Virus record (IMG/VR): IMGVR_UViG_3300028603_000021
Span: 96,001-160,000 of that record
Source: a virus
Taxonomy: Duplodnaviria; Caudoviricetes
Direction: 5' to 3' (one strand)
DNA: 64,000 nucleotides
A model generated the notes under the pieces. That model saw only the letters and a list, made by a program, of their open reading frames with translations. It made no database searches and was not told the origin of the DNA. Of this stretch, positions 14,016 through 30,806 are shown piece by piece. How positions within the stretch are numbered: the stretch's first letter is position 1; each line of letters opens with the position of its first letter. The position numbers were made by a program, and so were the translations under genes.

Positions 14016-14036
14016 CTGCTCTGCGTAGTAAAAACG

Positions 14037-14729
14037 CTAGCTTGAGTATCCCCACATAACGTCGTACAAGATCTCTGACATACCGACCTTGTTATCACCG
14101 TTGTTGTCTCTCAAGGCATCCTTCATGGCCTCGCTGAGCCAAGAGCCGCTTATCGGACGGGCTACTGCGTTCACGCTGTCCATGATAACAGCCTGGTTAG
14201 AAGACATGGAGATAGAAGCACTCTGCAAGACACAGACATACATGCCTATGCTGCTGCTTCTAGCTTTCACATCCCCAGGCTTAGCAGGTTGGTTGTCGAA
14301 GGTTATGTTTGATTTGTTGTAGCTGTCTGAAACTCTGTTCCTAGTAGCGAGGATGAACATAAAAGGAAACATCTGCTTGCCAGTCCTAGCATCTATAACC
14401 GCCGGAGATGCGTTTGTAAGGCTCACAGGGGACTCGTATGTTTTTCCTACGTGAGCCCACAGGGGGTTGAAGGCACCTAGGTTACGGAAATCCGCACCGT
14501 CTATCGTGGCCTTTTCTAGACGTATAGTAGTCTGCTGGAACCCAGACACAAGGACGGGCAGGGGAGTGCCGATAGTATTCTCTGCTCTACTCCCGAAATT
14601 GTCATCTACATTGATATTCTGTGCCATTCCAACGGTCTTAAGCCTGACACTGCTCGCAGTTGCAGCGGCTGGGGAATAGTCCTCAGGCGGAACGAGCACT
14701 TGGATTGTTGCGAAATGGGAAACTCTCAT
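14037..14729 (-). CDS. Tail tube protein paralogue 2
   Basis: KTVGMAQNINVDDNFGSRAENTIGTPLP resembles the SPO1/Twort-type tube motif (VGRAQS...YGT..VYEIGS..P); GGAGG RBS. Confidence 0.7.
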   Translation of the reverse strand: MRVSHFATIQVLVPPEDYSPAAATASSVRLKTVGMAQNINVDDNFGSRAENTIGTPLPVLVSGFQQTTIRLEKATIDGADFRNLGAFNPLWAHVGKTYESPVSLTNASPAVIDARTGKQMFPFMFILATRNRVSDSYNKSNITFDNQPAKPGDVKARSSSIGMYVCVLQSASISMSSNQAVIMDSVNAVARPISGSWLSEAMKDALRDNNGDNKVGMSEILYDVMWGYSS

Positions 14730-14792
14730 GTTTGTGTTTACCTCCGAGATAATCGGTTATAAAAGAAGCTAGATGGATTTATTATAGCATGG

Positions 14793-16208
14793 CTATATGG
14801 AAAGCTCCCACCTTACTGTTTTACATCCGAATACCTGATAAAACCCCTCTGCCGCAGCCATCTCTTTCTCAGAAGAATACTCCATCTCGGGGTTTCTCTT
14901 TTTAACGTTCTTGCGTTGAAACTGCCATCTGTCTGCCAAAACTCTGCCGTTTGTGTAGTATAAGCGTGGGGACGTGCTTACTGATTTCTCAGAAAAGCCG
15001 TTAGACCTGTATAATCCTCCGTCGCTGTATGCCATGTCTGAGTATGAAACTATCTTCTCTGGAGAGTAATGCTTAACGAAGTAAGACAGCAGCTTAGAAA
15101 AACCACCCACCACAAGTGTGTGCCTGAGAACTGCAAACCTTGACAGATACCACCCAGACTGGCTTTTCTTCATGCCCATAACCGCAACAAGACGTGAGGA
15201 GCTGTCAAACAAACCCAGGCGTATACGTGCGTCTACGCTTCCCTGAAGGTGGTTATGTGAAAGGAATTCCCTGTAGTCTTCGGTTGAAACATCAGAAACA
15301 GTGGTTTTCCTAGCGTATACCCGGTTAGTTTCTCTGCCGAGCTTGTTTTTCGCCCAAGACAGCACAAGATCAAAATCAGTCAGGCTGTCGTACCACACGT
15401 GGTACAGTTTTATCCCAGCTCTTGCAGCGGCCTCTGTTTTCTCTTGGTGATACATCCTGGGCTTGTGCAGAGAGCTGTGCCAGTATACTCCGTTTATCTC
15501 GAAAGCCACTTTCTCGTCAGAGAACCACAGATCCAGCTCTTGCCCGTTATCTAACAGGTCTTTCTTGTTAGCCTCTCCGCCTAAGTTATCAAGCAGGTGT
15601 TTGTGAAGCGGAGAAATCTGACACACCGGGCACCCGTAGCCCGATAGATGGTTGTTCGGTTGCTGCTTGAAGACATGTCCGTTAGGACAGACTATAGACA
15701 CTTTGTCTACAGCGGTGATGTAGTCAACCATTGAGTAATTATACTCAACATCCAGAGTACTTCTAGCCTTTTCGATGAATGTCTCTGTTGTTGCCCTTTT
15801 AGAGAGCCCCTTCTTTATGTTGCCGCAAGACGGGCATCCCTGCCCCCTCAGATGTGCGTCTGGGGTTTGGTAGAAAGCTCCGTGTTCTGGGCAGACTATC
15901 TCGACCTTTTCTCTAGCGTTAGTATAAGAAACCCGCGAGTAGTCGTAGATGTCGCCGTGAGCCTGCTTAGCTCTCTTTTCGAACTCCTCTGCTGTACTCC
16001 TAGCAGCTCGATCTCTAGCTGCACACATCATACACCCATGACCCTTAGCGTGGGAGTACGGAATCTGTGTGAACTCTCCGTGCTCCGGGCATATAAAAGT
16101 AGCAGGGCGCTCAGCGCCCCGATACTCGTATCTCTCGTAGCTGTATCTTCCGTCGTGGACGTTTGATAGGTTAGCGGGGGTGTATTTATCTGGTATAACC
16201 AAAATCAT
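14793..16208 (-). CDS. Zn-ribbon array (3 repeats) + Vsr/EDxHD-like endonuclease + GNAT-like domain; Hef-like free-standing homing endonuclease A
   Basis: CPxHGxFxQxPxxHxxGxGCxxC repeats; ELDLWF...AFEINGVYWH; C-terminal YAR...NHLQG...VVGGFSKL...SYSD...G.LY...GF. Confidence 0.75.
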   Translation of the reverse strand: MILVIPDKYTPANLSNVHDGRYSYERYEYRGAERPATFICPEHGEFTQIPYSHAKGHGCMMCAARDRAARSTAEEFEKRAKQAHGDIYDYSRVSYTNAREKVEIVCPEHGAFYQTPDAHLRGQGCPSCGNIKKGLSKRATTETFIEKARSTLDVEYNYSMVDYITAVDKVSIVCPNGHVFKQQPNNHLSGYGCPVCQISPLHKHLLDNLGGEANKKDLLDNGQELDLWFSDEKVAFEINGVYWHSSLHKPRMYHQEKTEAAARAGIKLYHVWYDSLTDFDLVLSWAKNKLGRETNRVYARKTTVSDVSTEDYREFLSHNHLQGSVDARIRLGLFDSSSRLVAVMGMKKSQSGWYLSRFAVLRHTLVVGGFSKLLSYFVKHYSPEKIVSYSDMAYSDGGLYRSNGFSEKSVSTSPRLYYTNGRVLADRWQFQRKNVKKRNPEMEYSSEKEMAAAEGFYQVFGCKTVRWELSI

Positions 16209-16251
16209 CCCTTCTTGCTAACTGTATCTTACCACAGCGGGAACAATGTGT

Positions 16252-16965
16252 CTAGTCTTGGCTTATCCTAGCTGAGGGGCTTCCGCCAATGGCACCAGTG
16301 CTACCACCACTACCCCCAGTTGGTAGGGGCACGTTGTTAGTCAGGTACTCGTTAACCATGTTGCTGGCGTCGAAGAACATTTCTTCGTAGGTGTATTTAT
16401 ACCCTGTCAGGCTCACGTTGTGCACAACCAGGACATCCCCAGACGAGACTGCGAACGAAGAACTTCTAGGCATCAGTGCGTATATATCATACCTGGTAGA
16501 GGTTGAGTCTTCTTTGCTTCTGAGAAAGAAGTAACTGTAGAGAAGAGCGTCGTCGATACCTATGTTCTTCTGAACCTCATCGGAGTACCAGAACTCTGGT
16601 GTGCTGAGGTAGTGGTATGCGTTCCTTCGATCTAGCTGGAGCCTGTCTACCGTGACGTTGACGGAGAAGTTGTTAGGTACCATGCGTGGGCGGGTAGGGG
16701 AACCGATTCCGTAGATGGCTTGTGTACCGTAGTCCTCGTCCACCCTGACCTGACGAGCGATACCGACAGTCTTGAAGATATCCTTGTTGGCCTGTAACGG
16801 CTTAGACCCATCCTTAAGGTGGGTACGAAGGTCGTCAATCGCCTCAAAGACAGCAGCCTCGTCGATCTCTCCCCCAGTGATAGTTCCTGAGGCCTTCTTG
16901 GTGTACAGCAGCGCAGCCAAAGATAAAACTTTGATTTCTGCTAGTGGACTAGTTCTTATTGCCAT
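16252..16965 (-). CDS. Tail tube protein paralogue 1
   Basis: KTVGIARQVRVDEDYGTQAIYGIGSPTRP motif; follows the sheath; AGGAG RBS. Confidence 0.7.
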   Translation of the reverse strand: MAIRTSPLAEIKVLSLAALLYTKKASGTITGGEIDEAAVFEAIDDLRTHLKDGSKPLQANKDIFKTVGIARQVRVDEDYGTQAIYGIGSPTRPRMVPNNFSVNVTVDRLQLDRRNAYHYLSTPEFWYSDEVQKNIGIDDALLYSYFFLRSKEDSTSTRYDIYALMPRSSSFAVSSGDVLVVHNVSLTGYKYTYEEMFFDASNMVNEYLTNNVPLPTGGSGGSTGAIGGSPSARISQD

Positions 16966-16997
16966 GTATTATCTCCTGGTGTAAAACTAATCTTATT

Positions 16998-18773
16998 CTA
17001 CGATGTTGATGGTGGATAGCACAACTCCCACTTCCTAGTACCAGGGCCGTATATGTAGTGCAGCCCGTTTTCGTTCAGTATCTCTTCCGCAGTTTTTTCC
17101 TCGGAGTACCCAGGGAAATTTACTAGGTATCTACGCTGGAATCTGCGCCTGCCGAATATATCAGTGTTGTTAGTTATAAAAAGTCTAGACCTAGTTTCTC
17201 TGACTTTTCTGAAGCCATGTCCATTATACACGTTACCTAAGGAATATCTGTTATCAGAGTACGTGACTACATGATCACGGTTGAAGCTCTTCAGAAGTTT
17301 GGAAAAGCCGCCGACGACGTTTGTGAACTTCAGCGAGCAGAATCTCTGGAGGGTATCGCCAGTGAACCCCATGACAGCTACTAGGCTACCGTTATATCTG
17401 AGGCCTTTCCTCTCTTTAGACATAACTCTACCGCCTTCTAGGTGATTATCCTTAAGAAAGGCGGAATACTCTGATTGTGATATGTCTTCTGTCACGCACT
17501 CTCTGGCGTATATCCTGGTCTTGCTTTTACCTATCAGATTCAGCAGAAAACTCTCTACCAGCTCGGGGTTATCTCTTATCTCTGAATCCCATATCTGCAC
17601 CAGCTGTATGCCAGCTGCTTCACACGCCTCAAACTTCTCCTGGTGATACATCTGTGGCATGAACTTATGGTAGTAAAGACCGTTTATCTCTATCCCTACC
17701 CTATACTCTGGGAGGTAGATATCTAGCTGTTTCGGTGGGATGATCTGATAGGTGTTTATCATCATCTCTTCGCCAACCAGCATATCTATAACAGCCTTAT
17801 GCGGAGCAGAAACAGTCTGACACTTTGGACAGCCGCCGTGATGGGCGCTTGCATGTACATGCCCGGTCACAGTAAAAGTCAGCCCGTGTTCCGCACACGT
17901 GACTGTGAGGGGGTCAAAATATCCAGAATAACCTTCGTACTTCCACCCAGGTCTTCCGTACTTGCTCAGATACGTTGAAAAATCCATCCCTTCTTTGCTG
18001 TCGTCGTAGCATTTTCTACACCCATGTCCTCCTAGATGGTCGTATGGTCGCTGTAAGAAATCTCCGTGCACAGGGCATGTAATCCTTGCCATAACCCCAA
18101 CGCGATCGGATATTTTATCGTAACCATACTTTTCCCCGTGCACCTGCTTAGAGGCATAGATAAAGTCCTCCTTAAGCAGAGTACGATTCGGGGCGCAGCT
18201 AGGACACCCCTGACCCTGTAGGTGCTTGTTTGGCGTTTGCAAGAAAGCTCCGTGAGTTGGACATAAGATAGTTACTTTAACTCCGTCACCACGGTAGTCT
18301 ACCTCAGAGTAGTCATAAGTATCTCCGTGTTTCTCTCTGCTCTGGAGTATAAACTCTTCCTGGCTTTTTGTTTTCTCTCTGCTGATCCTGTCGTAGCTAC
18401 ATTTTACGCACCCAGCCCCGTTCATATGGTTAGCCGGAGACTGAGAAAAATCTCCGTGAACAGGGCAACCGATCACTACTGGGGTTTTGGTTCCGTCTAA
18501 CACAACCTTATCGTATGAATACCTATTCCCGTGTACAGCTCTAGACCTGGTTATAAACTCATCTAGCGTTACTCTTCTCCCGGCTCTTGCATACCCGCAA
18601 GCAGGACACCCAGACTTGCTGTGTATATGGTTAGCTGGGCTTTGCCAGAAAGAACCGTGTATAGGACATGTTATATCAACCTTTGCCCGGTTATTTACGT
18701 AGTTAACATTTTCATACGTATAAAAACCACCATGAACTTTCAGCGCTCTTTCTACGAAGTCTTCTGTAGTCAT
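16998..18773 (-). CDS. Zn-ribbon array (5 repeats) + endonuclease + GNAT-like domain; Hef-like homing endonuclease B
   Basis: Same architecture as 14793-16208; QLDIYLPEYRVGIEINGLYYH. Confidence 0.75.
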   Translation of the reverse strand: MTTEDFVERALKVHGGFYTYENVNYVNNRAKVDITCPIHGSFWQSPANHIHSKSGCPACGYARAGRRVTLDEFITRSRAVHGNRYSYDKVVLDGTKTPVVIGCPVHGDFSQSPANHMNGAGCVKCSYDRISREKTKSQEEFILQSREKHGDTYDYSEVDYRGDGVKVTILCPTHGAFLQTPNKHLQGQGCPSCAPNRTLLKEDFIYASKQVHGEKYGYDKISDRVGVMARITCPVHGDFLQRPYDHLGGHGCRKCYDDSKEGMDFSTYLSKYGRPGWKYEGYSGYFDPLTVTCAEHGLTFTVTGHVHASAHHGGCPKCQTVSAPHKAVIDMLVGEEMMINTYQIIPPKQLDIYLPEYRVGIEINGLYYHKFMPQMYHQEKFEACEAAGIQLVQIWDSEIRDNPELVESFLLNLIGKSKTRIYARECVTEDISQSEYSAFLKDNHLEGGRVMSKERKGLRYNGSLVAVMGFTGDTLQRFCSLKFTNVVGGFSKLLKSFNRDHVVTYSDNRYSLGNVYNGHGFRKVRETRSRLFITNNTDIFGRRRFQRRYLVNFPGYSEEKTAEEILNENGLHYIYGPGTRKWELCYPPSTS

Positions 18774-18788
18774 GTCTTCCCTTCAGGT

Positions 18789-18823
18789 AAAAAAGTAGGA
18801 GCCTGCCAGTGTGGGCAAGCTCC
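18789..18823 (-). terminator. Intrinsic terminator after the sheath gene
   Basis: GGAGCTTGCC-CACACT-GGCAGGCTCC stem, then TACTTTTTT. Confidence 0.75.
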
Positions 18824-18826
18824 CTT

Positions 18827-18835
18827 ATTATAGCA
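18827..18835 (-). promoter_or_regulatory. Extended -10 element TGCTATAAT upstream of endonuclease B
   Basis: Perfect TGnTATAAT abutting the terminator stem. Confidence 0.6.
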
Positions 18836-18848
18836 CAGGTTGTTACTC

Positions 18849-20762
18849 TTATGCCAACGAGTATACCAAGCCGGTTGTAACCTTGAGGAAATCTATCTCG
18901 GATACTGGTTGATACACCAGGTCAACGTTGTATATCGTCTTGTCGTTAGGCTCTGCGTGAACTACTACATCTGCGTACTTCACGATGATTCCGTCAGTAA
19001 CCAGGTTGCTCAGGAGAGCACTCACGTAGCTAGCGATCTGCCCTTCGGTTTCTGCACCTAGAGACTTACGACCGATGAAGGTTTCTTCTAGGTTCTTGTA
19101 CAGGTAGCTGCTGACATAATCAACAATCCTACGAGTCATGAAGAGCTGCAAGCCACGACTAGGGGAACCAGTAAAGGTTGTGTAGTTGTGTGCAGCTATG
19201 TATTCTACTGCACCGGCAGAATTTCTGCGCTTCATAGCGAAGGCTAGGCCTCGCGTGTACAGCTCGTCTTTCTGTGCCTGTGACCAGTTGAACTCTAGAC
19301 CATCCGTAAAGATACCGGCAAGCCTAGCGAAGGTAAGGGTTACTGAAACTTCTCTGCCTGCGTGTGCTCCGACTGCGAACGACGCTAGCATGTCTGCTCC
19401 GTAGTTCTCCACAGCGGAGCTGAACGCACGGCTCTTGAAGCCACCTACCCAGCACTGGGTGCGGTCGTTGTTGAGAAGCCCAGAAAGCTCAGCAGTTGCG
19501 TCTAAGAAGTCAGCAGCCGTGCCGTTGACGGTCGTTCCAGACTTGTAGTAAGGTGTACCGAAGACAGTAGTCCTGTACCTGCGGTTAGGTATGTTAGACA
19601 TGGTGTTGACGTGTGCTAGGAACAGAGGTACTAGTGAGTTGAAGAACCCATAGCGCTTAGTCCACTCTACACCGTTACCACGTGCGTTGAACAGGTAGGC
19701 CGGTTGCACGAAGTTAACTTCTTCGTCTTCCATGGTTGCAAGGGCAGTTCCCCAAGAATCCGCCATAACGGTTGCGTTAGCTCTGTCGTAGGTCGTGTCG
19801 TAGTCGGTAGAACCACCGCTGGGGAACCCATAGAAGTTGGTACCGTCGTCTCCGTTGTTACCTCCGTCAAGTGCAACGTAAGGGTGCTCGATGAAGGTAT
19901 CTGCGTTCATCGGGTCGTATGTGAACCCAGGAAGCAGAACTTCTTCGATAGCAGGGTTGACGTTCTCCATCTCTACAAGCTCTGACGGGGCAAAACCAAG
20001 GCCACCGTTGTTGATAACGCTAGCGATAAGCGGAAGCGGGTAGATGTTAGTACCTGAGCCATACGGGAACACCAGGTAATCTTCATCGGTAGACTTCATG
20101 CTTGCAAGCTTGTCGTGGAAGGCGGTTTCGTCCAGGTTACCGTACTGCCAAGAGTCAGGGACTTCACGTATGACACCAGTAACTCTGTCCCTCAGTATGT
20201 AGTAGTTGGTTGTGTTCCCTGTGTAGAACTTTCCAGCTGGGTTGGGGATGTACCTAGGTACGATAAAGCTTTCTCTGATGTCGTTGCCTTGAGAGTCTGT
20301 GTAGCGTACACGTATAGTAAAGGTATCGTCTTCTGTGCCAACAGTATCCTTGTCGTTCATCGTGACAGAGACAGCTATGTTGTTGCCTAGAGCGCCCCTT
20401 TCCTTAGCTTTCCACACATACGACTCGTTATCCCCAGAGGTGTCTGTACCAGAGTTTATAGAGATAACCGCGAGGCTTGCCTGGTCGGGGTCTCCAGTCC
20501 TGATGCACACCATCGTGCTAGCCCCACCAACATAAGCAGCAAGGCCGTGACGAACCAACGGGCCGTCACCGAATGTCTGCACGAGCTGAGAGTAGCCATT
20601 GATCGTAACCGGGGTGTTGACAGGGCCTTTCTCTGCCAAGCCGATCATACCTATGATTCCGCTTCCTACGCCGTTTATGTCTGTAAGGCGGCTCAGGTCT
20701 AGCTTTATGTATGCCCCGAATGCTTTGATTAGATATCCGCCGAAATTGATCTGTCTAGCCAT
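18849..20762 (-). CDS. Contractile tail sheath protein
   Basis: IIGMIGLAEKGPVNTPV...LVQTFGDG N-terminus; RRIVDYV...FIGRK...YQPVSEIDFL C-terminus. Confidence 0.9.
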   Translation of the reverse strand: MARQINFGGYLIKAFGAYIKLDLSRLTDINGVGSGIIGMIGLAEKGPVNTPVTINGYSQLVQTFGDGPLVRHGLAAYVGGASTMVCIRTGDPDQASLAVISINSGTDTSGDNESYVWKAKERGALGNNIAVSVTMNDKDTVGTEDDTFTIRVRYTDSQGNDIRESFIVPRYIPNPAGKFYTGNTTNYYILRDRVTGVIREVPDSWQYGNLDETAFHDKLASMKSTDEDYLVFPYGSGTNIYPLPLIASVINNGGLGFAPSELVEMENVNPAIEEVLLPGFTYDPMNADTFIEHPYVALDGGNNGDDGTNFYGFPSGGSTDYDTTYDRANATVMADSWGTALATMEDEEVNFVQPAYLFNARGNGVEWTKRYGFFNSLVPLFLAHVNTMSNIPNRRYRTTVFGTPYYKSGTTVNGTAADFLDATAELSGLLNNDRTQCWVGGFKSRAFSSAVENYGADMLASFAVGAHAGREVSVTLTFARLAGIFTDGLEFNWSQAQKDELYTRGLAFAMKRRNSAGAVEYIAAHNYTTFTGSPSRGLQLFMTRRIVDYVSSYLYKNLEETFIGRKSLGAETEGQIASYVSALLSNLVTDGIIVKYADVVVHAEPNDKTIYNVDLVYQPVSEIDFLKVTTGLVYSLA

Positions 20763-20853
20763 GCTGGAAATCCTCCTGGGATTGTTCTGTGTTAGGGTTT
20801 AAGTAGTCGCAGTAGTACTCACATTGTACACTAGGTACTATGAAATAATCCAC

Positions 20854-21498
20854 CTAGCCGTTAACTTTAACGCTCGTACCAAAACCTATACACTCCTGAA
20901 TTCTTGTTTCTAGTGCGATCTTGTAAGATAGTAGGTCGTCTCTTTCTACCATGTTGAAAAATGTTGCTAGCATAGTATAGGTTAGTGTTCCTATATACAT
21001 AACACCGTTCTGAACGATGTCTTGGTTAGATTCTTCCTTAGAGCGTATATACCTTACTGCCTGTATACCATGAGTGTAGAAAAACGGGTCTGTGTCTATG
21101 TTATCCTGCTCTAGCTCAAGCATCCATATCTTGATAAGCTCCATGATGTTGTCTCTGTCGTCAGACGCTGTAGTCCATACAGATATCTCGATGGTTATGC
21201 TGTCTACCCATCCTTGGTATCTTTCTTCCGACCCATCGTATAGGTAGTCATTATCCGCAGCAGCCGTCATGCCGATAGCGTAGTTAGCTACGCTGCTGTC
21301 TAGGCGTCGAACAACTATCCTACGCTCTGCAACCTCGTCACCGTCTTTGTAGCGTACAAACGTTTCCTTAGACGGGTAGTCCATCGTGAAAACAAAGGGT
21401 ACACTAAGTTCGCCAAGAGAGGCAACCTTCTCACGTAACCCCTCTATGACGATCTCTTTGGGGTTTCTGCTGTCTACTAAGCTAAGGCGCTGTAACAT
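20854..21498 (-). CDS. Putative tail terminator / completion protein
   Basis: ITIEISVWT..DDRD motif; immediately upstream of the sheath. Confidence 0.55.
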   Translation of the reverse strand: MLQRLSLVDSRNPKEIVIEGLREKVASLGELSVPFVFTMDYPSKETFVRYKDGDEVAERRIVVRRLDSSVANYAIGMTAAADNDYLYDGSEERYQGWVDSITIEISVWTTASDDRDNIMELIKIWMLELEQDNIDTDPFFYTHGIQAVRYIRSKEESNQDIVQNGVMYIGTLTYTMLATFFNMVERDDLLSYKIALETRIQECIGFGTSVKVNG

Positions 21499-21998
21499 TA
21501 ATAATTATTCCAGACCTCTACGGTCATGAGAATGGTGTCATTGTGTATTGTAGGTCTAACAGGGTCGTGAAGAAGATAGAGAACTTCAGCAACAGGCCTC
21601 TGACCGTTATGGTCGCAGCACTTTCCTAGCAGCTCGAACTTATCCCTGAGAAGCCTGCGAGAATCGCCGTCTCTGTCCTTCAGGAGGCGGATGTCAAGAT
21701 GCCTGGGTAGAGTAAGTGATTTATTCCCCTTGATAACACCGCCAGCCCCGTCAGGAAACCACTGGTTGCTGTTGTCTGTGTAGACTCCCTTTATGGTTAT
21801 AGGCGAGGCGTACATCGTGCCTCGCCCACCACATACCGGGCATTCTTTCCAAGAAGAACCACGTGTCTCGTCGTAGCAAGGAGTACCGTCGTCTCTCACG
21901 TTAGGGCAGAACATAGCCTTGTGCCAGCGGATATCGCTACCCCCCAGCTGCAAAGCATGATCTGCTATCATGTTAGAAACGGTAGACAGGTCGAACAC
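21498..21998 (-). CDS. Putative neck / head-closure protein
   Basis: WHKAMFCP...CPVCGGRG Cys motif as in Twort/SPO1-type neck proteins; leaderless TAAAAT-6nt-GTG. Confidence 0.55.
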   Translation of the reverse strand: MFDLSTVSNMIADHALQLGGSDIRWHKAMFCPNVRDDGTPCYDETRGSSWKECPVCGGRGTMYASPITIKGVYTDNSNQWFPDGAGGVIKGNKSLTLPRHLDIRLLKDRDGDSRRLLRDKFELLGKCCDHNGQRPVAEVLYLLHDPVRPTIHNDTILMTVEVWNNY

Positions 21999-22098
21999 TA
22001 GGCTATTTTACCACGATACCTTCGGTTTAATCAACAACTAGAGAGACAACTCTGCCTCGCATCGTTGTATCAGCTTACGCATTAGTGTGCTTATAGCC

Positions 22099-23709
22099 TC
22101 ACCCTACAGGTGCAATCAACCTACGCCAGGTAGTAGTCCCGGCACCGTACAGAGCATAGATTCCGTTGCTCTTAAGTATCTCATCCGCTGATTTATCTGT
22201 GGAGACGCCTGTTAGTTTGTGTTTCTGAAATCTATTTCTGCTGTAGATATTTCTACCATCAGTATAATACAAAGTGAACGGGTATTCACTCTCCTTGCTA
22301 AACCCTGCTACGTCGTAGACATTCCCCTCTGAATACCTGTTGGCAGAGTGGGTTGTGATGTCACCCCCAAGGCGTGATAACAACCTAGAAAACCCCCCAG
22401 CTACATGAACAAAAGGCTTGACAGCAAACCTGTCTAGTACAACCCTGTTGTTGCGGATAGAAGTCCCAGCTGCACAGACAAGAACATCATCATAGTACAG
22501 CCCAAACTTGGTGCTTGAGTTCACAGCGCCCTGTAGGTGGCTGTCCGTTAAAAAACTCCTGTAGTCACCTGACGAGATTTCGCGTACTTCGCAGTTTCTT
22601 GCGTACACTTTATCAACCAGCATACCCATCTTGGAAAGTATCATGCTTTTAACTATATCCCACTTATCTATAACTTCGATATCCCAGAACTGCATAAGGT
22701 GGATTCCAGCCGCAGACGCCTCGTTTTGTTTATCTTGATGGTAATGCTTGCTCTTGAAGACAGAAGAATGCCAGTAGACACCATCTACCTCCACTCCTAA
22801 GCCAAACTCTGGCAAAAACACATCTATCTCGTAGGTGGGCATACCCCTGTACTCTGGTACGACCTTAACCCCCAAGGACACTAACCAGTCTATCACCTTC
22901 TTCTGCGGAGCAGATATATGCTTGACGCACCTAGGGCACCCTTGCCCCATCAGGTGTTTGTTTGGAGTCTGTTCGAACTCTCCGTGCCTTGGGCATAGTA
23001 TGAGAACCTTTTCTTGCGAAGAACTATACCTGACCAGCTCGTAGCTATAACTTTCACCGTGCAGTTCTACAGCTTTCCTGAGGAAAGTCGCCTCATCGTC
23101 CGTCTGCGCGTCTGTGGTTCTTTTCCTGCCACATTCTGGACACCCCGAGCCTGTTACATGGCTGTTGGGGGTCTGCTCAAAATCTCCGTGCTCACTACAG
23201 GTGATAGTAACACGACTGTTAGTACGTGTATAGTTTACCTTATCGTAGGTATATGTATCGCCGTGGATTTCTCTAGACTTATTTATAAAGTCTTCAGCAC
23301 TATAGGTGATACTATCTACAACACACTCCCTACACCCTACCTTGTCAGCTAAATGCTTTTTGGGGGAAACAAGGAAATCACCATGTACAGGACATGTAAC
23401 AGACAGCTTGGTCTTGTAATCTACGTACACAGCGTTGTCATACGTATACTTACCGCTATGTACTTGCGTAGCTCTTGTTTTGAATCTGCTCCTGGCGGCT
23501 TCATTCTTCTTTCTAGCAGATGCCTCATCCCCGCACTTACTACACCCCTGACCAGCCAGGTGGTTAGAGGGCGACTGCAAGAACTCCCCATGCAAAGGAC
23601 AAACTATTATAACCTTCTCTTTACTGGTGGTATAAGATGTTTTCTGATAGTCATACTGACTACCATGAACCAGTTTTGCCTTGGTTATAAATTCCTCTGT
23701 TGAACTCAT
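22099..23709 (-). CDS. Zn-ribbon array (4 repeats) + endonuclease + GNAT-like domain; Hef-like homing endonuclease C
   Basis: YEIDVFLPEFGLGVEVDGVYWH; own promoter TTGATT-17-TACAAT 7 nt before ATG. Confidence 0.75.
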   Translation of the reverse strand: MSSTEEFITKAKLVHGSQYDYQKTSYTTSKEKVIIVCPLHGEFLQSPSNHLAGQGCSKCGDEASARKKNEAARSRFKTRATQVHSGKYTYDNAVYVDYKTKLSVTCPVHGDFLVSPKKHLADKVGCRECVVDSITYSAEDFINKSREIHGDTYTYDKVNYTRTNSRVTITCSEHGDFEQTPNSHVTGSGCPECGRKRTTDAQTDDEATFLRKAVELHGESYSYELVRYSSSQEKVLILCPRHGEFEQTPNKHLMGQGCPRCVKHISAPQKKVIDWLVSLGVKVVPEYRGMPTYEIDVFLPEFGLGVEVDGVYWHSSVFKSKHYHQDKQNEASAAGIHLMQFWDIEVIDKWDIVKSMILSKMGMLVDKVYARNCEVREISSGDYRSFLTDSHLQGAVNSSTKFGLYYDDVLVCAAGTSIRNNRVVLDRFAVKPFVHVAGGFSRLLSRLGGDITTHSANRYSEGNVYDVAGFSKESEYPFTLYYTDGRNIYSRNRFQKHKLTGVSTDKSADEILKSNGIYALYGAGTTTWRRLIAPVG

Positions 23710-23803
23710 TCCTTACATTGTAGCATGCAACGACCATGAAATCAACGCCACCTAACAGTGACACACCCCTACATAGCAGTGAACTCAAGGTGTACCAGCC
23801 CAT

Positions 23804-24838
23804 CTACCAGGCTGTCATAACCGGCATGTAGTACGGCCCTAGAAGCTCTTCAGCTTCTTCCTTGTACCTTTGTATGGTCTTCATGTAGAGTCCTTCCCCG
23901 AAGGAAGCACTGAATCCGCTTACAGAGTAGCTCAGCATCCCCTTTGTGAACGCTACGTTAAGCATCTCAAATGCTTTCGATGCGGCTAACAGTGCGACAG
24001 CTTCTTGCAGTGCAGGAGGTATCCTCTCCATACCATGCTCATAGTCTACATGGATGAGCTGTGAAAAATACGGTACTCTCATACCATACCCAGCAAAACT
24101 CTGTAGTGCACCGTTACCTACTGCACTTATCTTAGCTTGTGCGGGGAAAAGCCTTACCGCTCCTTCTATCGGGTACAGGAAGTATTCACTAGGGTCGAAG
24201 GTTCTGTGCAGATAAGGAATGCCGAGCCCCATAGGGTCTTGTATAACCAGGGCAATCCTGTGTATCTTTATGATGTTCCTCTCGTAGAGCTTGATGTAGC
24301 TTCTTTCTCTACCGTCTATCCTCTCTTCGTTCTCGGTCTTGTTGGGAGCATAGAGGACACGTGATGCGAACTCCTTCATCTGTTCCGGGGTCAGCAAATC
24401 CCAAGGAAGAGTCCCGGGGGTATACAGGGTGGAGTCGTTGTTGTACATATCCATCTGTTCTGGTTCTAGGTTGCTCCACTGTGGATATTCTCGGTAAGAA
24501 ACATCTAAGAATGAATCTAGCGCCCCGGTAGAGTACTTAACTCTGTCTTCGTATACTTCTTGGGGGGTTCGTGCAAAGTTAGTCTTACGTCTCGGGTAGA
24601 GGGCAAGCTTTATACGGTTCTCCACCTGAGCCACGGCGTTGTTTATAGCCCGTATCAAGATAGAGCGGAAACCAGGGATAGGAGAATAACCACTAGAGTC
24701 ACACCTAGCAGACTCTGGTATGCCTCCGCCGCCAGGTATACCGCTAGCTGCCGGTGCTCCGATTATCTTGTCCTCGACCAGCTGTATCAGCAGGTTAAGC
24801 TCTTTACCTTGTACCCCGATCCCTCTGAAATACTCCAT
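23804..24838 (-). CDS. Head-tail connector / neck adaptor
   Basis: HVDYEHGMERIPPALQEAVALLAA...SYSVSGFS motif typical of gp6/gp15-like adaptors. Confidence 0.65.
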   Translation of the reverse strand: MEYFRGIGVQGKELNLLIQLVEDKIIGAPAASGIPGGGGIPESARCDSSGYSPIPGFRSILIRAINNAVAQVENRIKLALYPRRKTNFARTPQEVYEDRVKYSTGALDSFLDVSYREYPQWSNLEPEQMDMYNNDSTLYTPGTLPWDLLTPEQMKEFASRVLYAPNKTENEERIDGRERSYIKLYERNIIKIHRIALVIQDPMGLGIPYLHRTFDPSEYFLYPIEGAVRLFPAQAKISAVGNGALQSFAGYGMRVPYFSQLIHVDYEHGMERIPPALQEAVALLAASKAFEMLNVAFTKGMLSYSVSGFSASFGEGLYMKTIQRYKEEAEELLGPYYMPVMTAW

Positions 24839-24840
24839 GT

Positions 24841-26214
24841 TTATGCCGTCCTTGGTATAGCTAGCGTAAGGTAGCCAGAGTAAGCAGTAACAGTGAGCCT
24901 GAGTACATCGTTAGCCGCAAAAGACGTGCTACCCGTTGCAGAAGAAAAATTAGTCCCGTCAGTGGATTTAGCATATGCAAGCGTGCCAGTTCCCCTCTGG
25001 GTGACACTACCTAAGTTTAACGTGACAGATTCCGTGAAAACTATCTCGTAGCTTCCATTTCCGGGGGGATTGACATAGAAAGGATCAAACCCCATAGCTG
25101 CTTTAGCTTCCGCAGGGGTGCTCAACGTTACAGCACTCGTTCCGTTACCACGCAAGAAGCTTCCTGTGGTAATGGTGGCTAACCCCGTCCCGCCGTTTGC
25201 TACACCAAAAATTCCCGTGGTTATATCAGATGTAGGGTGGGTGTGCGCTGTAGCGGCTTTTGTGGCTAAACCATCATCCACGTATTTCTTACGTGTTGCT
25301 TCGTTATCTATAGTTGGGTCTGACGCAGGCAAGACAGGGACACTAGAGAACGTTTTAACTCCGCTTATGTACTGATCTCCACTAGTCTCTACTACACCTA
25401 TCGAGGATGCCGCCCCGATATCCGAAAGAACCTCAGCTGGGGTTTTAAACGTTACCGCACTGGTTCCTGCCCCGACTATGTAGCTACCGCTTGTGAGAGT
25501 TGCCGCCCCCGTGCCACCACGAGCGACGGCTAGTGTTCCAGCGTTTATGTCTGAAGCGTTGTGAGTGTGGCTGACATCTGCCTTACCAGCAAGAGCGCTG
25601 TTGAGGTCTCCTTGGTCGCTGAGTGTACCAGTGATACCACCCCACACAGTGCCGCCACCCATAGCCGCGTCGTCAACATATTTCTTTGTCGCGGCTTGCA
25701 TGTCCGTAGTGGGAGCGGGAACTATCGGAGACGACGTGAAGGTTTTAACCCCGCCAACAGACTGAGCACCAGTCAGCTTGACTACTGCGTTATCAGCGGC
25801 TGCCCCTATGTCTGAGAGCACTTGTGCAGCAGTTCTCTGCTCTAGCGCAGACGCGCCAGAAGCCCTCATATAATTTCCAGTAGTGAAAGAGCTTATCCCG
25901 GTGCCACCACGGTCAACGCCAAATGTTCCAGAAGTGATGTCTGCCGCTGAGTGGGTATGTACGGTGGCCGCCTTACCTGATAAAGCAGTGTCTAGGTCTC
26001 CCTGGTTTGACAGAGTACCTGTGATGTCGCCCCACGCTGGAGCGGCAGCAGAGCTTCCCCACGACATGTCGTAGTCTACGCTCGAATCTTTCTTGAGAAC
26101 CTGTCCTACTGTACCGCCGGGAGGAACGATAGTAACAGTGGCTACCAGGTCAGTACCAACCTTAGTAAAGGTTATACCTTCGTTCTGGGCGTTGTCGATG
26201 CGGATGTTAGCCAT
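24841..26214 (-). CDS. Fibre (collar/whisker or head fibre) with about 2.5 internal repeats
   Basis: Repeats of WG.ITGTLS.QGDL, HTH..DIT.G, RGGTG and ATKKYVDD; C-terminal domain shared with 50116-51843. Confidence 0.7.
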   Translation of the reverse strand: MANIRIDNAQNEGITFTKVGTDLVATVTIVPPGGTVGQVLKKDSSVDYDMSWGSSAAAPAWGDITGTLSNQGDLDTALSGKAATVHTHSAADITSGTFGVDRGGTGISSFTTGNYMRASGASALEQRTAAQVLSDIGAAADNAVVKLTGAQSVGGVKTFTSSPIVPAPTTDMQAATKKYVDDAAMGGGTVWGGITGTLSDQGDLNSALAGKADVSHTHNASDINAGTLAVARGGTGAATLTSGSYIVGAGTSAVTFKTPAEVLSDIGAASSIGVVETSGDQYISGVKTFSSVPVLPASDPTIDNEATRKKYVDDGLATKAATAHTHPTSDITTGIFGVANGGTGLATITTGSFLRGNGTSAVTLSTPAEAKAAMGFDPFYVNPPGNGSYEIVFTESVTLNLGSVTQRGTGTLAYAKSTDGTNFSSATGSTSFAANDVLRLTVTAYSGYLTLAIPRTA

Positions 26215-26306
26215 GTCTGACCTCGTTGTTTATTATACACAACATCTCATGAAGATAAACCTCCCAACCTTGCAGCCGGGAGGCCTGTCTATCTTATGGG
26301 CATGTG

Positions 26307-26735
26307 TCAGAGACCTTGTTCGTCTCTTAGCTTCCTGAGCGCCGCAGTTGTTATATCTAGGTGCTCTGCAACTGCTTTCCATGTTCCAAGCTCTTCGTAG
26401 AGAGCAGCAACATCTGGTGTTTCTTCCTCAGCCGGGATTTCCTCAGCGGGAACCTCCTCAGCCGGAGTTTCCTCAGCCGGGGTTTCCTCAGCCGGGGTTT
26501 CCTCAGCCGGGGTTTCCTCAGCCGGGGTTTCCTCAGCCGGGGTTTCCTCAAGCGGAACGCGCTCTTCAGCAACCGCCCCTACAAAAGGATACTTACCAGC
26601 CTGCATAGCTATATGAGAAACCACACCATAAGCAACACCGTCGTTGAAGACTACTACTCTTCCTCCGATGTTCTTGATCTGCCTGCCTTCAGTAGTGTAC
26701 TGGGGAGCTAGTCTTATGGTGTATGTCATGTTCAA
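26307..26735 (-). CDS. Hypothetical protein with EETPA repeat linker and short C-terminal helical domain
   Basis: 142-aa ORF in the structural operon. Confidence 0.65.
   Translation of the reverse strand: MNMTYTIRLAPQYTTEGRQIKNIGGRVVVFNDGVAYGVVSHIAMQAGKYPFVGAVAEERVPLEETPAEETPAEETPAEETPAEETPAEETPAEEVPAEEIPAEEETPDVAALYEELGTWKAVAEHLDITTAALRKLRDEQGL
26422..26549. repeat. 15-bp coding tandem repeat (GAGGAAACCCCGGCT on minus strand), about 8 copies, the last ones degenerate
   Basis: Directly visible tttcctcagccgggg array; encodes (EETPA)n. Confidence 0.9.
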
Positions 26736-27388
26736 GCTTCTAGAGTTACGGTAACTGTATCAGACTTAGATGGGTCTTCCACACTAGTTGCAGTTACTGT
26801 GGTGGTGTCGCTAACACTAGCCCCGGTCGCCACAGTAAGAAGGCCAGTTGTTTCATCTATAGTAGCGGTTCCGGGGGTGCCTACACTCCATGTGACGGCT
26901 TCAGAACCACCAGGAGCAACCGTAACGGTTGCAGCAAACTGGTGAGTCCCTGCCCCGATTGATACGTTAAGATCTCCGCCAGTGATAGCTACGCTACTCA
27001 CCGCATACGGAACACGTAGGGTGATGCTGTCAAACTCGTTGCTTTCTACGGTACTTGTGGCTGTGATGGTCACGTTACCTTGAGCTACCCCAGTGACTAA
27101 GCCATCATTGACTGTAGCGATAGCATTATCACTAGTTGCCCATGTAACAGTGTTAGCAGCACCGTGAGCGGTAACTACCGTAGCTGTAAGCTGTAACGTG
27201 CTACCTATGCTTACAAAATCAGCATCCCCAGCGGCAGACACCGTTACAGATACAACGTTAGGAGCAACGTTCCACGCCTTCATCTTCGTCTCTAGGTCTT
27301 TCAGGAAGACGACTACGGGGTTGTTCTGCTTAGCCTTGTTAGGCTCAGGGATACGAGTTGCGATAAAGTCTTCTGTACGTTTATCCAT
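26732..27388 (-). CDS. Ig-like (Big_2 x2) virion decoration protein
   Basis: VTWATSDNAIATVNDGLVTGVAQGNVTITATS and a second similar domain. Confidence 0.8.
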   Translation of the reverse strand: MDKRTEDFIATRIPEPNKAKQNNPVVVFLKDLETKMKAWNVAPNVVSVTVSAAGDADFVSIGSTLQLTATVVTAHGAANTVTWATSDNAIATVNDGLVTGVAQGNVTITATSTVESNEFDSITLRVPYAVSSVAITGGDLNVSIGAGTHQFAATVTVAPGGSEAVTWSVGTPGTATIDETTGLLTVATGASVSDTTTVTATSVEDPSKSDTVTVTLEA

Positions 27389-27390
27389 GG

Positions 27391-27516
27391 TTAGTCTTCT
27401 GGGATCAGTGCGAGAAGTTCTTCGAGGAACTTAACAAGGGGGTTCTCACCAACAGGTAGGTTTGGCTCAGGGACGTTAGTCTCGATAAGCTTCTTTACAT
27501 CGTCAGGAAGTTTCAT
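27391..27516 (-). CDS. Unannotated 41-aa protein homologous to the N-terminus of the Ig protein
   Basis: AGGAG RBS; MKLPDDVKKLIETNVPEPNLPVGENPLVKFLEELLALIPED. Confidence 0.75.
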   Translation of the reverse strand: MKLPDDVKKLIETNVPEPNLPVGENPLVKFLEELLALIPED

Positions 27517-27612
27517 TCTTTTTCTCTCCTAGGGGCGAAAAGCGTCGCCTCGGTATGTACGTTAGTTAGGATTATTCTACCACAAGAACATGAACAACCT
27601 TATGATACCACG

Positions 27613-29232
27613 TCAGTTGCTGAAAACCCAAGTTCTGGTACCAGCGTCGAAGAGCTGTTCTGCTCCTCTCATGGCAGCAAGCTCTATCTCAGACCTAGCG
27701 TCGTTATCTGGAAGCCCGAGAGCCTCCCTGCTCTTGTGCTTCATGAAGTTAGCTCGGTTGTAAAGTCGGCCATCCATGAAGTAGAACAACGAAACCTTGT
27801 TTTCCCTCGTCATATCAAAACCAAGATTACCGTAGAGGGCTCCGTTGCTGTACCTGTTGTAAGAATAAGAAGTTATCTTCCCGGGTGGTCGATGTTTGAA
27901 CAGCTTAGAAAACCCGCCAACAACCACCGTACTCATGAGAGAGCAGAACCTGTCTAGCTCGTAACCGTCGTTCCTGGTAGAGAACCCCATAACCGAAACC
28001 AGCATACCGTCGTGTTCTAGCCCCAGCTTGACCTTAGAGTTCTTAGCACCCTCTAAGTGGTTGATGTCTAGAAACTCCCGGTAAGCAGAAGGAGATACAT
28101 CTACTACCTTACACTCGCGTGCATAGAGTTTGTTCTGTACTAGTCCTAGTGCATTATATATCATACTTCTGACTAGTTCTGGCTTTTCGTCTATCTCATT
28201 ACCCCAGAACTGCAACAGCCTTATACCTTGCTCTTCGCACTCTATAAACTTCTTGTAGTGGTACTGACGGTCTTGCAGCATCCGGTGGGTATGGAAGTAC
28301 TCTCCGTTTATCTCTATAGCTAGCTTTTTCTCCGGGAAGTACAGATCTAGCTCTTTGCGGCCGATGATGCCCCTCTTGTTAACCTCGTAGCTTTCCCCGA
28401 TATCGTCTAACCATCCTATGATACGGTTATGCTGTGTAGATATATTGGAACTGCAACGTGGGCAACGGATACCAGCTAGATGAGAATAGAGATTCTGAGA
28501 GACTTCCCCGTGTTCTTTGCACCTATACGTCAGCGTGCCAGATTCCAAGCTGATATACTCATAGAGATCACCATGTACTTCCCTGGCTCTTTTTTCCGCC
28601 TCTTCTAAGGTAGTTCTGGGTCGTCGAGAGTTTACTTGGTAAGAGCAAGTCCTACATCCTTGTCCATTCAGGTGTTTATCGTAGGTCTGAGTAAAGACAC
28701 CGTGGATAGGACAGACAAACTTGCCCCTGGTGTAAGCCAGCCTAGAGATAGTTTCTGGTATGAGGTGGTATAGATATTTTTCTCCGTGAACTTCTCTAGC
28801 CTTCTCGACGAACTCTTCACGAGACATCTCTACCACAAGGGCTTCACTAGCACATTCCCTACAGCCATAGCCGTCTAAGTGAGATGAAGCTCTCTGTTTG
28901 AACTTACCGTGAACCGGGCAGATTATCGTTACCGGGTTTCTAGTTTCCGTGAAGTTGGCTTTCGAATAGTCGAACTTATCCCCGTGAACCTCTCTAGCAC
29001 GCTTCTCAAAGTCTTCCGGAGTCATGGATATGCTGGCGATATAGCAATCCCTACAACCCTGTCCCCTGTTGAGGTGGTTTCCCGGAGTCATATCGAAGTT
29101 ACCGTGCTCTGGGCAAATTATCGTTACCGGAACTTTACTACCTCGATAGTCCACCTTGTCATAAACATATCTATCACCGTGAATTTTGCGGGCTTTTCTG
29201 ACGAATTCTTCCTTATTACTTTTCTTAGCCAT
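27613..29232 (-). CDS. Zn-ribbon array (4 repeats) + endonuclease + GNAT-like domain; Hef-like homing endonuclease D
   Basis: KELDLYFPEKKLAIEINGEYFH; likely start ATG 29232, 5 nt after TATACT. Confidence 0.75.
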   Translation of the reverse strand: MAKKSNKEEFVRKARKIHGDRYVYDKVDYRGSKVPVTIICPEHGNFDMTPGNHLNRGQGCRDCYIASISMTPEDFEKRAREVHGDKFDYSKANFTETRNPVTIICPVHGKFKQRASSHLDGYGCRECASEALVVEMSREEFVEKAREVHGEKYLYHLIPETISRLAYTRGKFVCPIHGVFTQTYDKHLNGQGCRTCSYQVNSRRPRTTLEEAEKRAREVHGDLYEYISLESGTLTYRCKEHGEVSQNLYSHLAGIRCPRCSSNISTQHNRIIGWLDDIGESYEVNKRGIIGRKELDLYFPEKKLAIEINGEYFHTHRMLQDRQYHYKKFIECEEQGIRLLQFWGNEIDEKPELVRSMIYNALGLVQNKLYARECKVVDVSPSAYREFLDINHLEGAKNSKVKLGLEHDGMLVSVMGFSTRNDGYELDRFCSLMSTVVVGGFSKLFKHRPPGKITSYSYNRYSNGALYGNLGFDMTRENKVSLFYFMDGRLYNRANFMKHKSREALGLPDNDARSEIELAAMRGAEQLFDAGTRTWVFSN

Positions 29233-29237
29233 GATGT

Positions 29238-29267
29238 AGTATAACACATTGGATTCCTCTGAGTCAA
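29238..29267 (-). promoter_or_regulatory. Sigma70-type promoter TTGACT-18-TATACT (leaderless) for endonuclease D
   Basis: Near-consensus -35 and extended -10. Confidence 0.7.
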
Positions 29268-29353
29268 TACCCTACTCCAACACTAAGGAAAATACACGAT
29301 ACCCTTGACCCTTAGGGAGTAGTTACTGTTCTAATGGTATCCAATGAGGTCAC

Positions 29354-29385
29354 AAAAAGAACCGGGTAGGATGATTCCTACCCGG
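29354..29385 (-). terminator. Intrinsic terminator after the major capsid gene
   Basis: CCGGGTAGGA-ATCA-TCCTACCCGG then TTCTTTTT. Confidence 0.85.
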
Positions 29386-29411
29386 CTGGTTTATGGCTTA
29401 GAAACCCCGTC

Positions 29412-30806
29412 CTAGACGGCGTTACTTTGCCCGACGTTTACAATTGCGAAGTTGAATTCTGGTGCTCGGGCATACAGGCTAACCACGTGGCGGATAGCCA
29501 AATCTCTGTTCAGCACCTGTGGGAGTTGTACCTGCTCAAGTGGGATCCACTGTGCAAGTGCAGTAGTGCGGAAATCCACACCAACTACATTACCTGTACC
29601 AGGGATACGTTCGTAGGTAAAGCTACCATACCCAGAGGTCAAGGTCTGATGGCCGTTGTCGGTGAAAGAGAAGCTCGTCCCGTAGACAGGAACTTTAGTA
29701 AGGAACTTAAACTCACCGCCGTTATCAGAACGGAAGATGATAACCCACTTAGTAGAAGCATCCACAGTGGCTGAAAGATCCGCAGCGTAGTTAGTACTTC
29801 CATCGGGCGTTGCTGGCCCACTTCCTGGCACAGCAGCAGATTCTCCGTAGAAGTTTGCAGCCTTAATCTGGTAGGTGTAGCTACCGTTAGCAAGACGGGT
29901 TGTGGTAGCCGTAGTGTTGTTGCTTACGGTTAGGGTTCCAGGAGCAGGTGGACGAGCGAACTCCCCGCCGGTGTTACCGAAGCCGATGTCCGTGAACTTA
30001 TCCCAGTCTCCGAGGAAACGTGAGGTTACAAGCTCGCTTTCTCCGTATGCAGAGATGTAGCTCTGTGCATCGGCTCCCAGGAGGCCAGCAGCACGTTCAG
30101 TCTGGCTGGTACGTGCGATCTGGTAGAAGCTCTGCTGTAGGTTGATCTTGTCAACAGGTGACATGAAGACTACATCAGGACGAGCCATGCCTTGTGTCTG
30201 GTAGACTTTGTTCTCTGCAACCCAGAGGGCAGCAAGAGAAAGAGGAGCACCCTTGAGGTCAAGGATATTCTGTGGCGCACCGCGCTTGACCATCGTAGGA
30301 ACACCATCGAACTGAAGGTTTCCGGGGGAGTCGAACTCGGTCGAGCCGAAGGCGCGGTTCCCGTGGAACATCATCCATTCGGTTTCTTCCATCACGGCTA
30401 CCATCTTCTCGTTGCGTGCAGTCTGCTCAGCAGTCTGGATACCTTCGCGGGTAGTAGCAACGGCAAGCTCTGTGATGGTGATGCGGTGACCGATCAGGCT
30501 CGGGCGGGTACGACGACGAACTACGTCAGCGTCGATAGTACGGGGAATACCGCCGTCCTTGTACGCACCGTAGCCGATCTTGTCGTGACGTGAGGTCACG
30601 AGGCTGTACTCGTGCTCTAGAGCAGTTGCCTGTACCTTAGTAAGGCGCTCGTAGAACGGAGTTTCCAAGATGTTAAGGCGGGCAAGCTCGCCTTCAAGAT
30701 CCTGTCTTTCGAGGCCTTGTGCAACCTGGCTGGTGCCGTCGATTGCCTTGAGGACATCTGGGTGCAGGTGCTCTAGGTATTTCATGTGTTCTGGGTAGTA
30801 TGACAT
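29412..30806 (-). CDS. Major capsid protein (SPO1/Twort/A511-like)
   Basis: LERQDLE, TEWMMFHG...LQFDG motifs, FN3-like insertion; downstream of the protease; strong terminator. Confidence 0.85.
   Translation of the reverse strand: MSYYPEHMKYLEHLHPDVLKAIDGTSQVAQGLERQDLEGELARLNILETPFYERLTKVQATALEHEYSLVTSRHDKIGYGAYKDGGIPRTIDADVVRRRTRPSLIGHRITITELAVATTREGIQTAEQTARNEKMVAVMEETEWMMFHGNRAFGSTEFDSPGNLQFDGVPTMVKRGAPQNILDLKGAPLSLAALWVAENKVYQTQGMARPDVVFMSPVDKINLQQSFYQIARTSQTERAAGLLGADAQSYISAYGESELVTSRFLGDWDKFTDIGFGNTGGEFARPPAPGTLTVSNNTTATTTRLANGSYTYQIKAANFYGESAAVPGSGPATPDGSTNYAADLSATVDASTKWVIIFRSDNGGEFKFLTKVPVYGTSFSFTDNGHQTLTSGYGSFTYERIPGTGNVVGVDFRTTALAQWIPLEQVQLPQVLNRDLAIRHVVSLYARAPEFNFAIVNVGQSNAV

Follow-up and report, generated by a model that had tools for sequence, protein, structure and literature searches.

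Hef-type homing endonucleases were placed in the Vsr-like, or EDxHD, nuclease family in 2011 (PMC3239194), and the hef enzyme of phage U5 cleaves nrdB (PMC2988022). The EDxHD prototype, I-Bth0305I (PDB 3r3p), is intron-encoded and carries NUMOD/HTH arms. Restriction-fold nucleases fused to Mom-family domains (Mom-REase fusions) have been described in group 2 jumbo phages and given a restriction-modification-like reading (Iyer et al. 2021; PMC7824862). Mom itself, from phage Mu (PDB 8bv8; PF25680), is a Gly-tRNA-dependent GNAT that modifies adenine at N6; R111, S124 and R151 are essential to it, and activity is severely impaired in the mutants D149A, H58A and Y159A (PMC13219725). CapR-type domains bind DNA, and modular CapR/DUF723 arrays are found in phage homing endonucleases (bioRxiv 10.1101/2023.03.23.533998). 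Here we describe six paralogous genes, A to F, of an uncultured 190-kb myovirus-like phage, each encoding a tandem repeat array (of zinc ribbons in A to D), a Vsr/EDxHD-like nuclease and a Mom-like GNAT tail, in that order. Four of them, A to D, lie in the window, that is, the whole stretch of 64,000 nucleotides (nt) that was analyzed, positions 96001-160000 of the 190,018-bp virus record IMGVR_UViG_3300028603_000021, which CheckV rates as complete.

We consider it very probable that A to F are free-standing Hef/EDxHD (Vsr-like) homing endonuclease genes that have settled in virion-module junctions of this phage. The domain order, the fold assignments, a nuclease core intact in all six copies and the variable occupancy of the junctions in relatives carry this assignment. 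A first-pass annotation of the window had reported four paralogues whose 3, 5, 4 and 4 repeats precede a Vsr-like nuclease and, at the C-terminus, a conserved domain; all of these are present, the count of four holding for the window and the whole genome containing six. A to D align with one another end to end at 38-40% identity. Each matches PHROG 559 at full length (E 1.2e-95 to 1.4e-119, profile positions ~120-600 of 607) and likewise PHROG 3339, labelled 'homing endonuclease' (E 1e-68 to 1e-78); the label 'HNH endonuclease' attached to PHROG 559 is a misnomer. The architecture is ordinary and has already been published piece by piece. What is new here are the relatives with empty sites, the graded loss of Mom residues over six paralogues, the zinc-free arrays, and a Mom/nuclease gene pair split by E.

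The Hef and Hef-like enzymes (PHROG 559/3339; Mutine gp190, Deifobo 0111, AB-Navy1 189) resemble A to F in their order of domains (DNA-binding N-terminus, Vsr-like nuclease, conserved C-terminus) and in lying between or inside conserved phage genes; for U5 Hef, the likeness draws on PMC3239194 and on annotation. By contrast, A to F are less than 45% identical to any database protein outside their own record, and there are six copies in one genome. Relatives were found by tblastn in 1,013 cultured phage records. The homologue of Pseudomonas phage Deifobo (0111) splits a DNA polymerase gene, that of Salmonella phage Mutine (gp190) lies on the opposite strand with tube on one side and sheath on the other, and that of Acinetobacter phage AB-Navy1 (189) stands beside the capsid gene; further homologues adjoin ribonucleotide reductase.

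Occupancy of the junctions in relatives

Each copy in the window sits just downstream of a virion gene, as the first-pass annotation had noticed: D follows the major capsid gene, C the head-tail adaptor-like gene, B the sheath gene and A the tube gene. We compared these junctions with those of L007/L008 (Logan assemblies), which share the virion module at 60-73% protein identity, and, at a greater distance, of L013, whose sheath is 66% identical, and of L012, L014 and L015, whose sheaths are 59-61% identical. Between the adaptor gene and the gene for a 166-amino-acid (aa) protein, where the window phage carries C, L007 has four other genes, and in L012 the site is empty and the two genes abut (this junction is covered in L012 and not in L013-L015). 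Between sheath and tube, the site of B, both L007 and L013 carry an endonuclease, and L012, L014 and L015 are empty. Between tube and tube2, the site of A, L007 is empty, with stop and start codons overlapping in TAATG, and so are L012, L014 and L015. The junction of a 214-aa gene with the sheath gene is empty in the window phage (91 bp) and occupied by an endonuclease in L007; it is again empty in L012, L014 and L015, and neither this junction nor that of A is covered in L013. Further, L007 has an opposite-strand endonuclease copy upstream of its adaptor gene, and L012, L014 and L015 are free of inserts at every covered junction of the adaptor-to-tube2 block. Because the junctions are empty or differently filled in relatives, we regard the genes as mobile insertions. 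This variable occupancy of the same junctions bears out the earlier proposal that they act like free-standing homing endonuclease genes.

Copy E, which lies outside the window, has a different setting. A stand-alone Mom gene flanks it directly on one side and an Eco47II-like nuclease gene on the other, and both of the junctions so created overlap stop and start codons (ATGA, GTGA). In a related 185-kb phage (L010:6001-7481), the Mom and Eco47II-like genes overlap directly (GTGTGA). The Mom gene and its restriction-fold partner, which here correspond to about 47061-50196 of G000:C1, make a candidate unit of two genes for adenine modification and nuclease action. Relatives of the Mom-type protein number about 2,400 and are roughly 300 aa in length.

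In the mechanism that we envisage, a relative without the insert infects the same cell. The CapR/DUF723-type array would bind an extended stretch of that relative's DNA, within the neighboring gene or next to it, and the Vsr-like domain would cut there. Recombinational repair, with the endonuclease-bearing genome as template, would then carry the gene over to the insert-free relative, probably along with flanking markers. Immunity of the usual kind, based on insertion or polymorphism, would fit with insertion at gene junctions.

It is far less probable, indeed very improbable in our estimate, that the copies are domesticated derivatives that have lost homing and either bind DNA to regulate the late structural operon, in the manner of CapR of the PLE satellite, or act as co-infection exclusion factors. 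The CapR regulator did arise from a homing endonuclease through its DNA-binding domain, all copies were counted as lying inside the virion gene module, and promoter-like and terminator-like sites flank several of them. The nuclease core (Asp, Glu, Asn/Asp, His) is nevertheless intact in six of six copies, and occupancy varies freely among relatives, with L012, L014 and L015 lacking any copy at the covered module junctions.

The nuclease and its Mom-like tail

Behind the array, all four window copies carry the segment (E/Q)LD...E-[IV]-[ND]-G-x-Y-x-H. An AlphaFold2 (AF2) model of C residues 268-536 (pLDDT 93.0) splits into two domains. The first of these, model residues 1-96, superposes on the catalytic domain of I-Bth0305I (3r3p) with a Z-score of 11.6 and a root-mean-square deviation of 2.4 A over 92 residues at 24% identity (VIA-align), and it also superposes on a DUF559 protein. 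A sequence profile searched against the PDB matched 3r3p at E 2.6e-9, and this match and the superposition together bear out the earlier call of a Vsr/EDxHD-like nuclease; Pfam matches to this segment are weak (Vsr, DUF559 and MTES_1575; in D, DUF559 at E 1.6e-4 and Vsr at E 0.014). The 3r3p chain is the D196A/H213A mutant of I-Bth0305I. All six copies have an Asp, an Asn/Asp and a His in alignment with D196, N208 and H213 of that enzyme, and the Asp, Glu, Asn/Asp and His of the nuclease core are intact in every one. I-Bth0305I thus shares nuclease fold and sequence family with A to F; it differs in being intron-encoded, in having NUMOD/HTH arms in place of zinc-ribbon repeats, and in having no GNAT. 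A homodimer prediction for the nuclease-GNAT half scored 0.00 and weighs neither way.

The C-terminal domain measures 175-180 aa in A to D. Of the motifs listed for it by the first-pass annotation, NHL(Q/E)G, L-x-R-F, GGFS(K/R)L and G-x-x-Y-x-x-x-GF recur in all four copies, whereas S-Y-S-D is intact in A and B only. Residues 104-269 of the C model adopt a GNAT fold, with Z-scores of 12-13 to many N-acetyltransferases. The top Foldseek match is Mu Mom (8bv8; E 6e-6), and the C model shares with Mom an insertion between the last two strands. By hhalign, a 166-sequence alignment of the family matches Mu Mom at E 5.6e-4 with R111, D149, R151 and Y159 in register; against an alignment of the genome's own Mom family, the match is at E 0.086 in the same register, and the Ser of G-G-x-S-K falls on Mom S124. 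An Atlas feature search returned viral clusters, partly labelled Acetyltransf_1 or Mom. The suggestion that this domain is GNAT/Mom-like therefore holds, since Foldseek puts Mu Mom first and conserved residues line up with H58, R111, S124 and Y159. In Pfam, the tails of A to D taken alone matched no model even at E 10, the Mom model PF25680 included, and a distant homologue, P0021, reached Pfam Mom at E 0.0043 only. Searches with NCBIfam and PADLOC yielded no useful match. By Z-score, ordinary N-acetyltransferases match the tail as well as Mom does, or better. Because the domains have no Pfam Mom match and the Z-score to Mom does not exceed those to ordinary GNATs, we call the domain Mom-related and not a member of the Mom family.

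We scored the conservation of the Mom residues over 166 family representatives. The equivalents of H58, R111 and Y159 are each 100% conserved, that of S124 is 88% conserved and that of R151 78%; the D149 position is Asp in 61% and Asn in 19%. Within the genome, B alone has equivalents of all six residues. A has Ala at the R151 equivalent (D-M-A-Y-S), and the D149 equivalent is Ala in C, E and F and Tyr in D; five of the six copies lack the Asp (D149) or the Arg (R151) that Mom needs. Because the H58, R111 and Y159 equivalents are invariant and S124 is retained in most representatives, the cleft has most likely kept the ability to bind a ligand. Retained across the family, this Mom-derived GNAT probably works as an accessory module that faces DNA or a nucleotide, for target engagement, regulation or base probing, and we think that it is not a general self-protecting modifier. 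Mom-type transfer, if there is any, is most plausible for B, because only B keeps every residue that Mom needs. One could imagine that in copies with the full Mom set (B) the array steers the GNAT to aminoacylate one adenine in its own recognition site, and that copies without the Asp or Arg only read the base; we hold this to be a long shot. If true, a homing endonuclease would carry its own site-specific immunity, and B would be a naturally programmable DNA adenine modifier.

The first-pass annotation had gone further and proposed a one-polypeptide weapon akin to restriction-modification, with protection of self by the GNAT. Under this explanation, the Mom-like domain would modify the phage's own adenines at or near the array-bound sites, and the nuclease would spare self and cut host or competitor DNA. 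The idea is already in print for the Mom-REase fusions (PMC7824862) and finds no support here; we think it unlikely. It can draw on the Mom-like fold, with the H58, R111, S124 and Y159 equivalents in register and nearly invariant in the family, and on copy B with its full residue set; however, the other five copies lack a D149 or R151 equivalent, positions at which Ala mutants cripple Mom (PMC13219725), the Asp position holds Asp in only 61% of representatives, and the isolated tail domains have no Pfam Mom match. The separate Mom/Eco47II-like pair suggests that adenine modification and a nuclease are used as a pairing in this lineage, but it also means that the phage already carries a bona fide Mom for genome-wide modification. 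Further, presence and absence at junctions is the pattern of a selfish homing gene and not of a conserved defence module. Self-protection by the GNAT is thus left unsupported, though not refuted.

Two comparisons with described proteins place the tail more closely. Like Mu Mom, it has the GNAT fold and conserves the equivalents of H58, R111, S124 and Y159; unlike Mom, it falls below the Pfam Mom model, lacks a D149 or R151 equivalent in five of six copies, and is fused to a nuclease. The Mom-REase fusions likewise join a restriction-fold nuclease to a Mom-family domain and occur in multiple copies per genome (five in PA5oct), and tblastn directly matches a Wroclawvirus (PA5oct-like) homologue. 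PMC7824862 reads them as restriction-modification units, whereas the genes described here are mobile junction inserts with an incomplete Mom catalytic set.

Several observations weigh against the assignment of A to F as homing endonuclease genes, or complicate it. The equivalent of I-Bth0305I E170 is His or Gln in these proteins, and that of D222 aligns with the invariant His of the Y-H motif in a HMMER alignment that may be shifted; the active site is therefore not a textbook EDxHD site, and the motif match is incomplete. Homing and cutting by A to F are a predicted mechanism. No relative was found at >90% DNA identity, the level needed for co-conversion tracts or target inference. Further, the strong conservation of the Mom-like cleft argues for a specific GNAT function, which could be catalytic, and I-Bth0305I cuts without a GNAT, so that in principle this domain is not needed for cutting.

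The zinc-ribbon array

The module of the array is 60-68 aa long and follows the pattern C-P-x-H-G ... H ... G-C-x-x-C; a regular expression and a hidden Markov model both count 3, 5, 4 and 4 modules in A to D. The C..H...C..C zinc ligands are present in 16 of 16 repeats of these four proteins, and every hexapeptide quoted for the short helix by the first-pass annotation was found. Pfam matches the repeats to DUF723, DUF4379 and CapR. DUF723 scores 33-61 bits in the repeats of A to D (cut-off 20.9), and the DUF4379 cut-off of 24.5 bits is passed by A, B and C (30-40 bits), with D below it (15.9 bits). In an AF2 model of C residues 1-265 (pLDDT 93.4), each module consists of a helix and a beta-hairpin that holds the first knuckle, followed by the short P-x-x-H-L helix and by another helix, with the second knuckle, that extends into the linker. 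Foldseek of the four-repeat array model against the PDB returned zero matches at E <= 0.001, and the module therefore has no solved relative visible to that search.

Copies E and F have four repeats each, in which the helix and hairpin motifs are kept and the zinc ligands are lost (D-P-E-F-G-E-F ... G-H-R-L-R-G). The fourth repeat of F is the only one in either protein that still has the first Cys, and Pfam gives no match on E or F. The CapR/DUF723/DUF4379 arrays of T5orf172 homing endonucleases (Barth et al. 2023; Netter et al. 2021) belong to the same repeat family and vary likewise in tandem number. In contrast to those GIY-YIG-like enzymes, the array is joined here to an EDxHD nuclease and a GNAT, and two copies are zinc-free.

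The repeats had been suggested to form a recognition code, like that of zinc fingers (ZF) or TALE proteins, retargeted to each neighboring gene. In such a code, the variable residues of the short helix would read a few base pairs each, and paralogues would be retargeted by changing or swapping modules. We measured variability over 196 repeats from 57 proteins. The x positions of F-x-Q-x-P-x-x-H-L-x-G-x-G rank with the most variable (3.3-3.7 bits), in keeping with the hypervariability claimed for the short helix; variability is, however, not confined there, since loop positions 25-34 are comparably variable (3.3-3.6 bits), and no hypervariable position is privileged. The module is regular in the AF2 model (helix, beta-hairpin, short helix and knuckle helix; pLDDT 93), the number of modules per protein ranges from 1 to 5 in the 57 homologues, and in T5orf172 endonucleases the CapR/DUF723 arrays have been proposed to diversify in modular fashion, all of which would suit a code. 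Against it, repeats show no rank-wise orthology among the paralogues. Nor do the variable repeat positions correspond between the endonucleases of the window phage and of L007 at the same junction, where the DNA on either side has diverged too far for targets to be deduced. Further, the specificity of I-Bth0305I comes mostly from the nuclease dimer and not from the N-terminal arm (PMC3239194), and E and F keep the module without its zinc ligands. We find no support for a code retargeted to the neighboring gene, and no refutation either, and consider it quite unlikely.

DUF723-type repeats occur in 57 of 172 sampled family members. In the metagenome homologues P0012 and P0016-P0019, the nuclease and Mom-like module stand behind a Pfam DUF7487 N-terminus and not a zinc-ribbon array. 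The isolated GNAT domain (of D) returned 13,185 representative clusters at E <= 0.001, almost always at the C-terminus of proteins of 400-700 aa.

Genome setting and wider meaning

By tail sheath, the nearest cultured relatives of the phage are the Thermus phages phiYS40/TMA, at 34% identity. Megablast of window positions 14000-30000 against cultured phages gave no match, and a scan of IMG/VR for the sheath with exact peptide patterns found none. In the order of transcription, as identified by PHROG, the module runs from prohead protease and major capsid protein through D, an Ig-domain protein, a fibre-like protein and the head-tail adaptor-like protein to C, and then through two virion proteins, sheath, B, tube, A and the second tube-like gene to the tape measure (Table 1). 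The 637-aa open reading frame (ORF) between B and C is not a further paralogue but the tail sheath. GC content and GC at third codon positions (GC3) of the endonuclease genes are slightly below those of their neighbors and are uninformative.

Table 1. Features of the locus and of the copies elsewhere in the genome. Positions are those of the window unless a sequence name precedes them.
Feature	Position (nt)	Strand	Remarks
Second tube-like gene	14037-14729		neighbor of A
Paralogue A	14793-16208	minus	471 aa; PHROG 559 E 1.2e-95 over full length
A, Mom-like GNAT	14796-15332	minus	
A, Vsr/EDxHD-like nuclease	15333-15617	minus	
A, array	15618-16208	minus	3 repeats
Tail tube gene	16252-16965		between A and B
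Paralogue B	16998-18773	minus	591 aa; PHROG 559 E 1.4e-119
B, Mom-like GNAT	17001-17540	minus	
B, nuclease	17541-17816	minus	
B, array	17817-18773	minus	5 repeats
Tail sheath gene	18849-20762		neighbor of B; 637 aa
166-aa virion gene	21498-21998		neighbor of C
Paralogue C	22099-23709	minus	536 aa
C, Mom-like GNAT	22102-22620	minus	
C, nuclease	22621-22923	minus	
C, array	22924-23709	minus	4 repeats
Head-tail adaptor-like gene	23804-24838		neighbor of C
ORF with E-T-P-A-E repeats	26307-26735	minus	142 aa
Paralogue D	27613-29247	minus	544 aa from GTG 29247; 539 aa from probable start ATG 29232
D, Mom-like GNAT	27616-28140	minus	
D, nuclease	28141-28449	minus	
D, array	28450-29232	minus	4 repeats
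Major capsid gene	29412-30806		D lies downstream
Terminator-like hairpin	13994-14017	minus	after second tube gene
Terminator-like hairpin	18797-18824	minus	after sheath gene
Terminator-like hairpin	29360-29387	minus	after capsid gene
Promoter-like site	16254-16226		just upstream of A
Promoter-like site	23745-23717		just upstream of C
Promoter-like site	29267-29238		just upstream of D
Copy E	G000:C1:47639-49240 (L004:4640-6241)	minus	533 aa; outside window
Copy F	G000:C1:84336-85934 (L005:4337-5935)	minus	532 aa; outside window
Stand-alone Mom, P0173	L004:6238-7197	minus	PF25680 49 bits, threshold 27.1
Eco47II-like nuclease gene	L004:4062-4658	minus	

The tube gene and the second tube-like gene are paralogous, both belonging to phrog_20157; they are adjacent in every relative examined and are parted only here, by A. 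The capsid, sheath and second tube genes are each followed directly by a strong terminator-like hairpin, with a stem of 10-12 bp and a T run behind it. Extended -10 promoter-like sites just upstream of D, C and A are consensus matches only, and such sites show no excess in the region over shuffled sequence (18 versus 16.9). Between the Ig-domain protein and the fibre-like protein lies a small ORF that encodes a perfect tandem repeat of E-T-P-A-E in about seven copies.

As annotation, the result is routine: in this large uncultured phage, the mosaic breaks of the virion module are explained by selfish endonuclease genes. There is a wider question, not peculiar to this locus, which concerns the role of a Mom-derived GNAT in a family of more than 13,000 representative clusters. 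With six paralogues that hold differing subsets of the Mom residues, two zinc-free arrays, a separate Mom, and relatives whose junctions are empty, this genome is a handy test bed for it.

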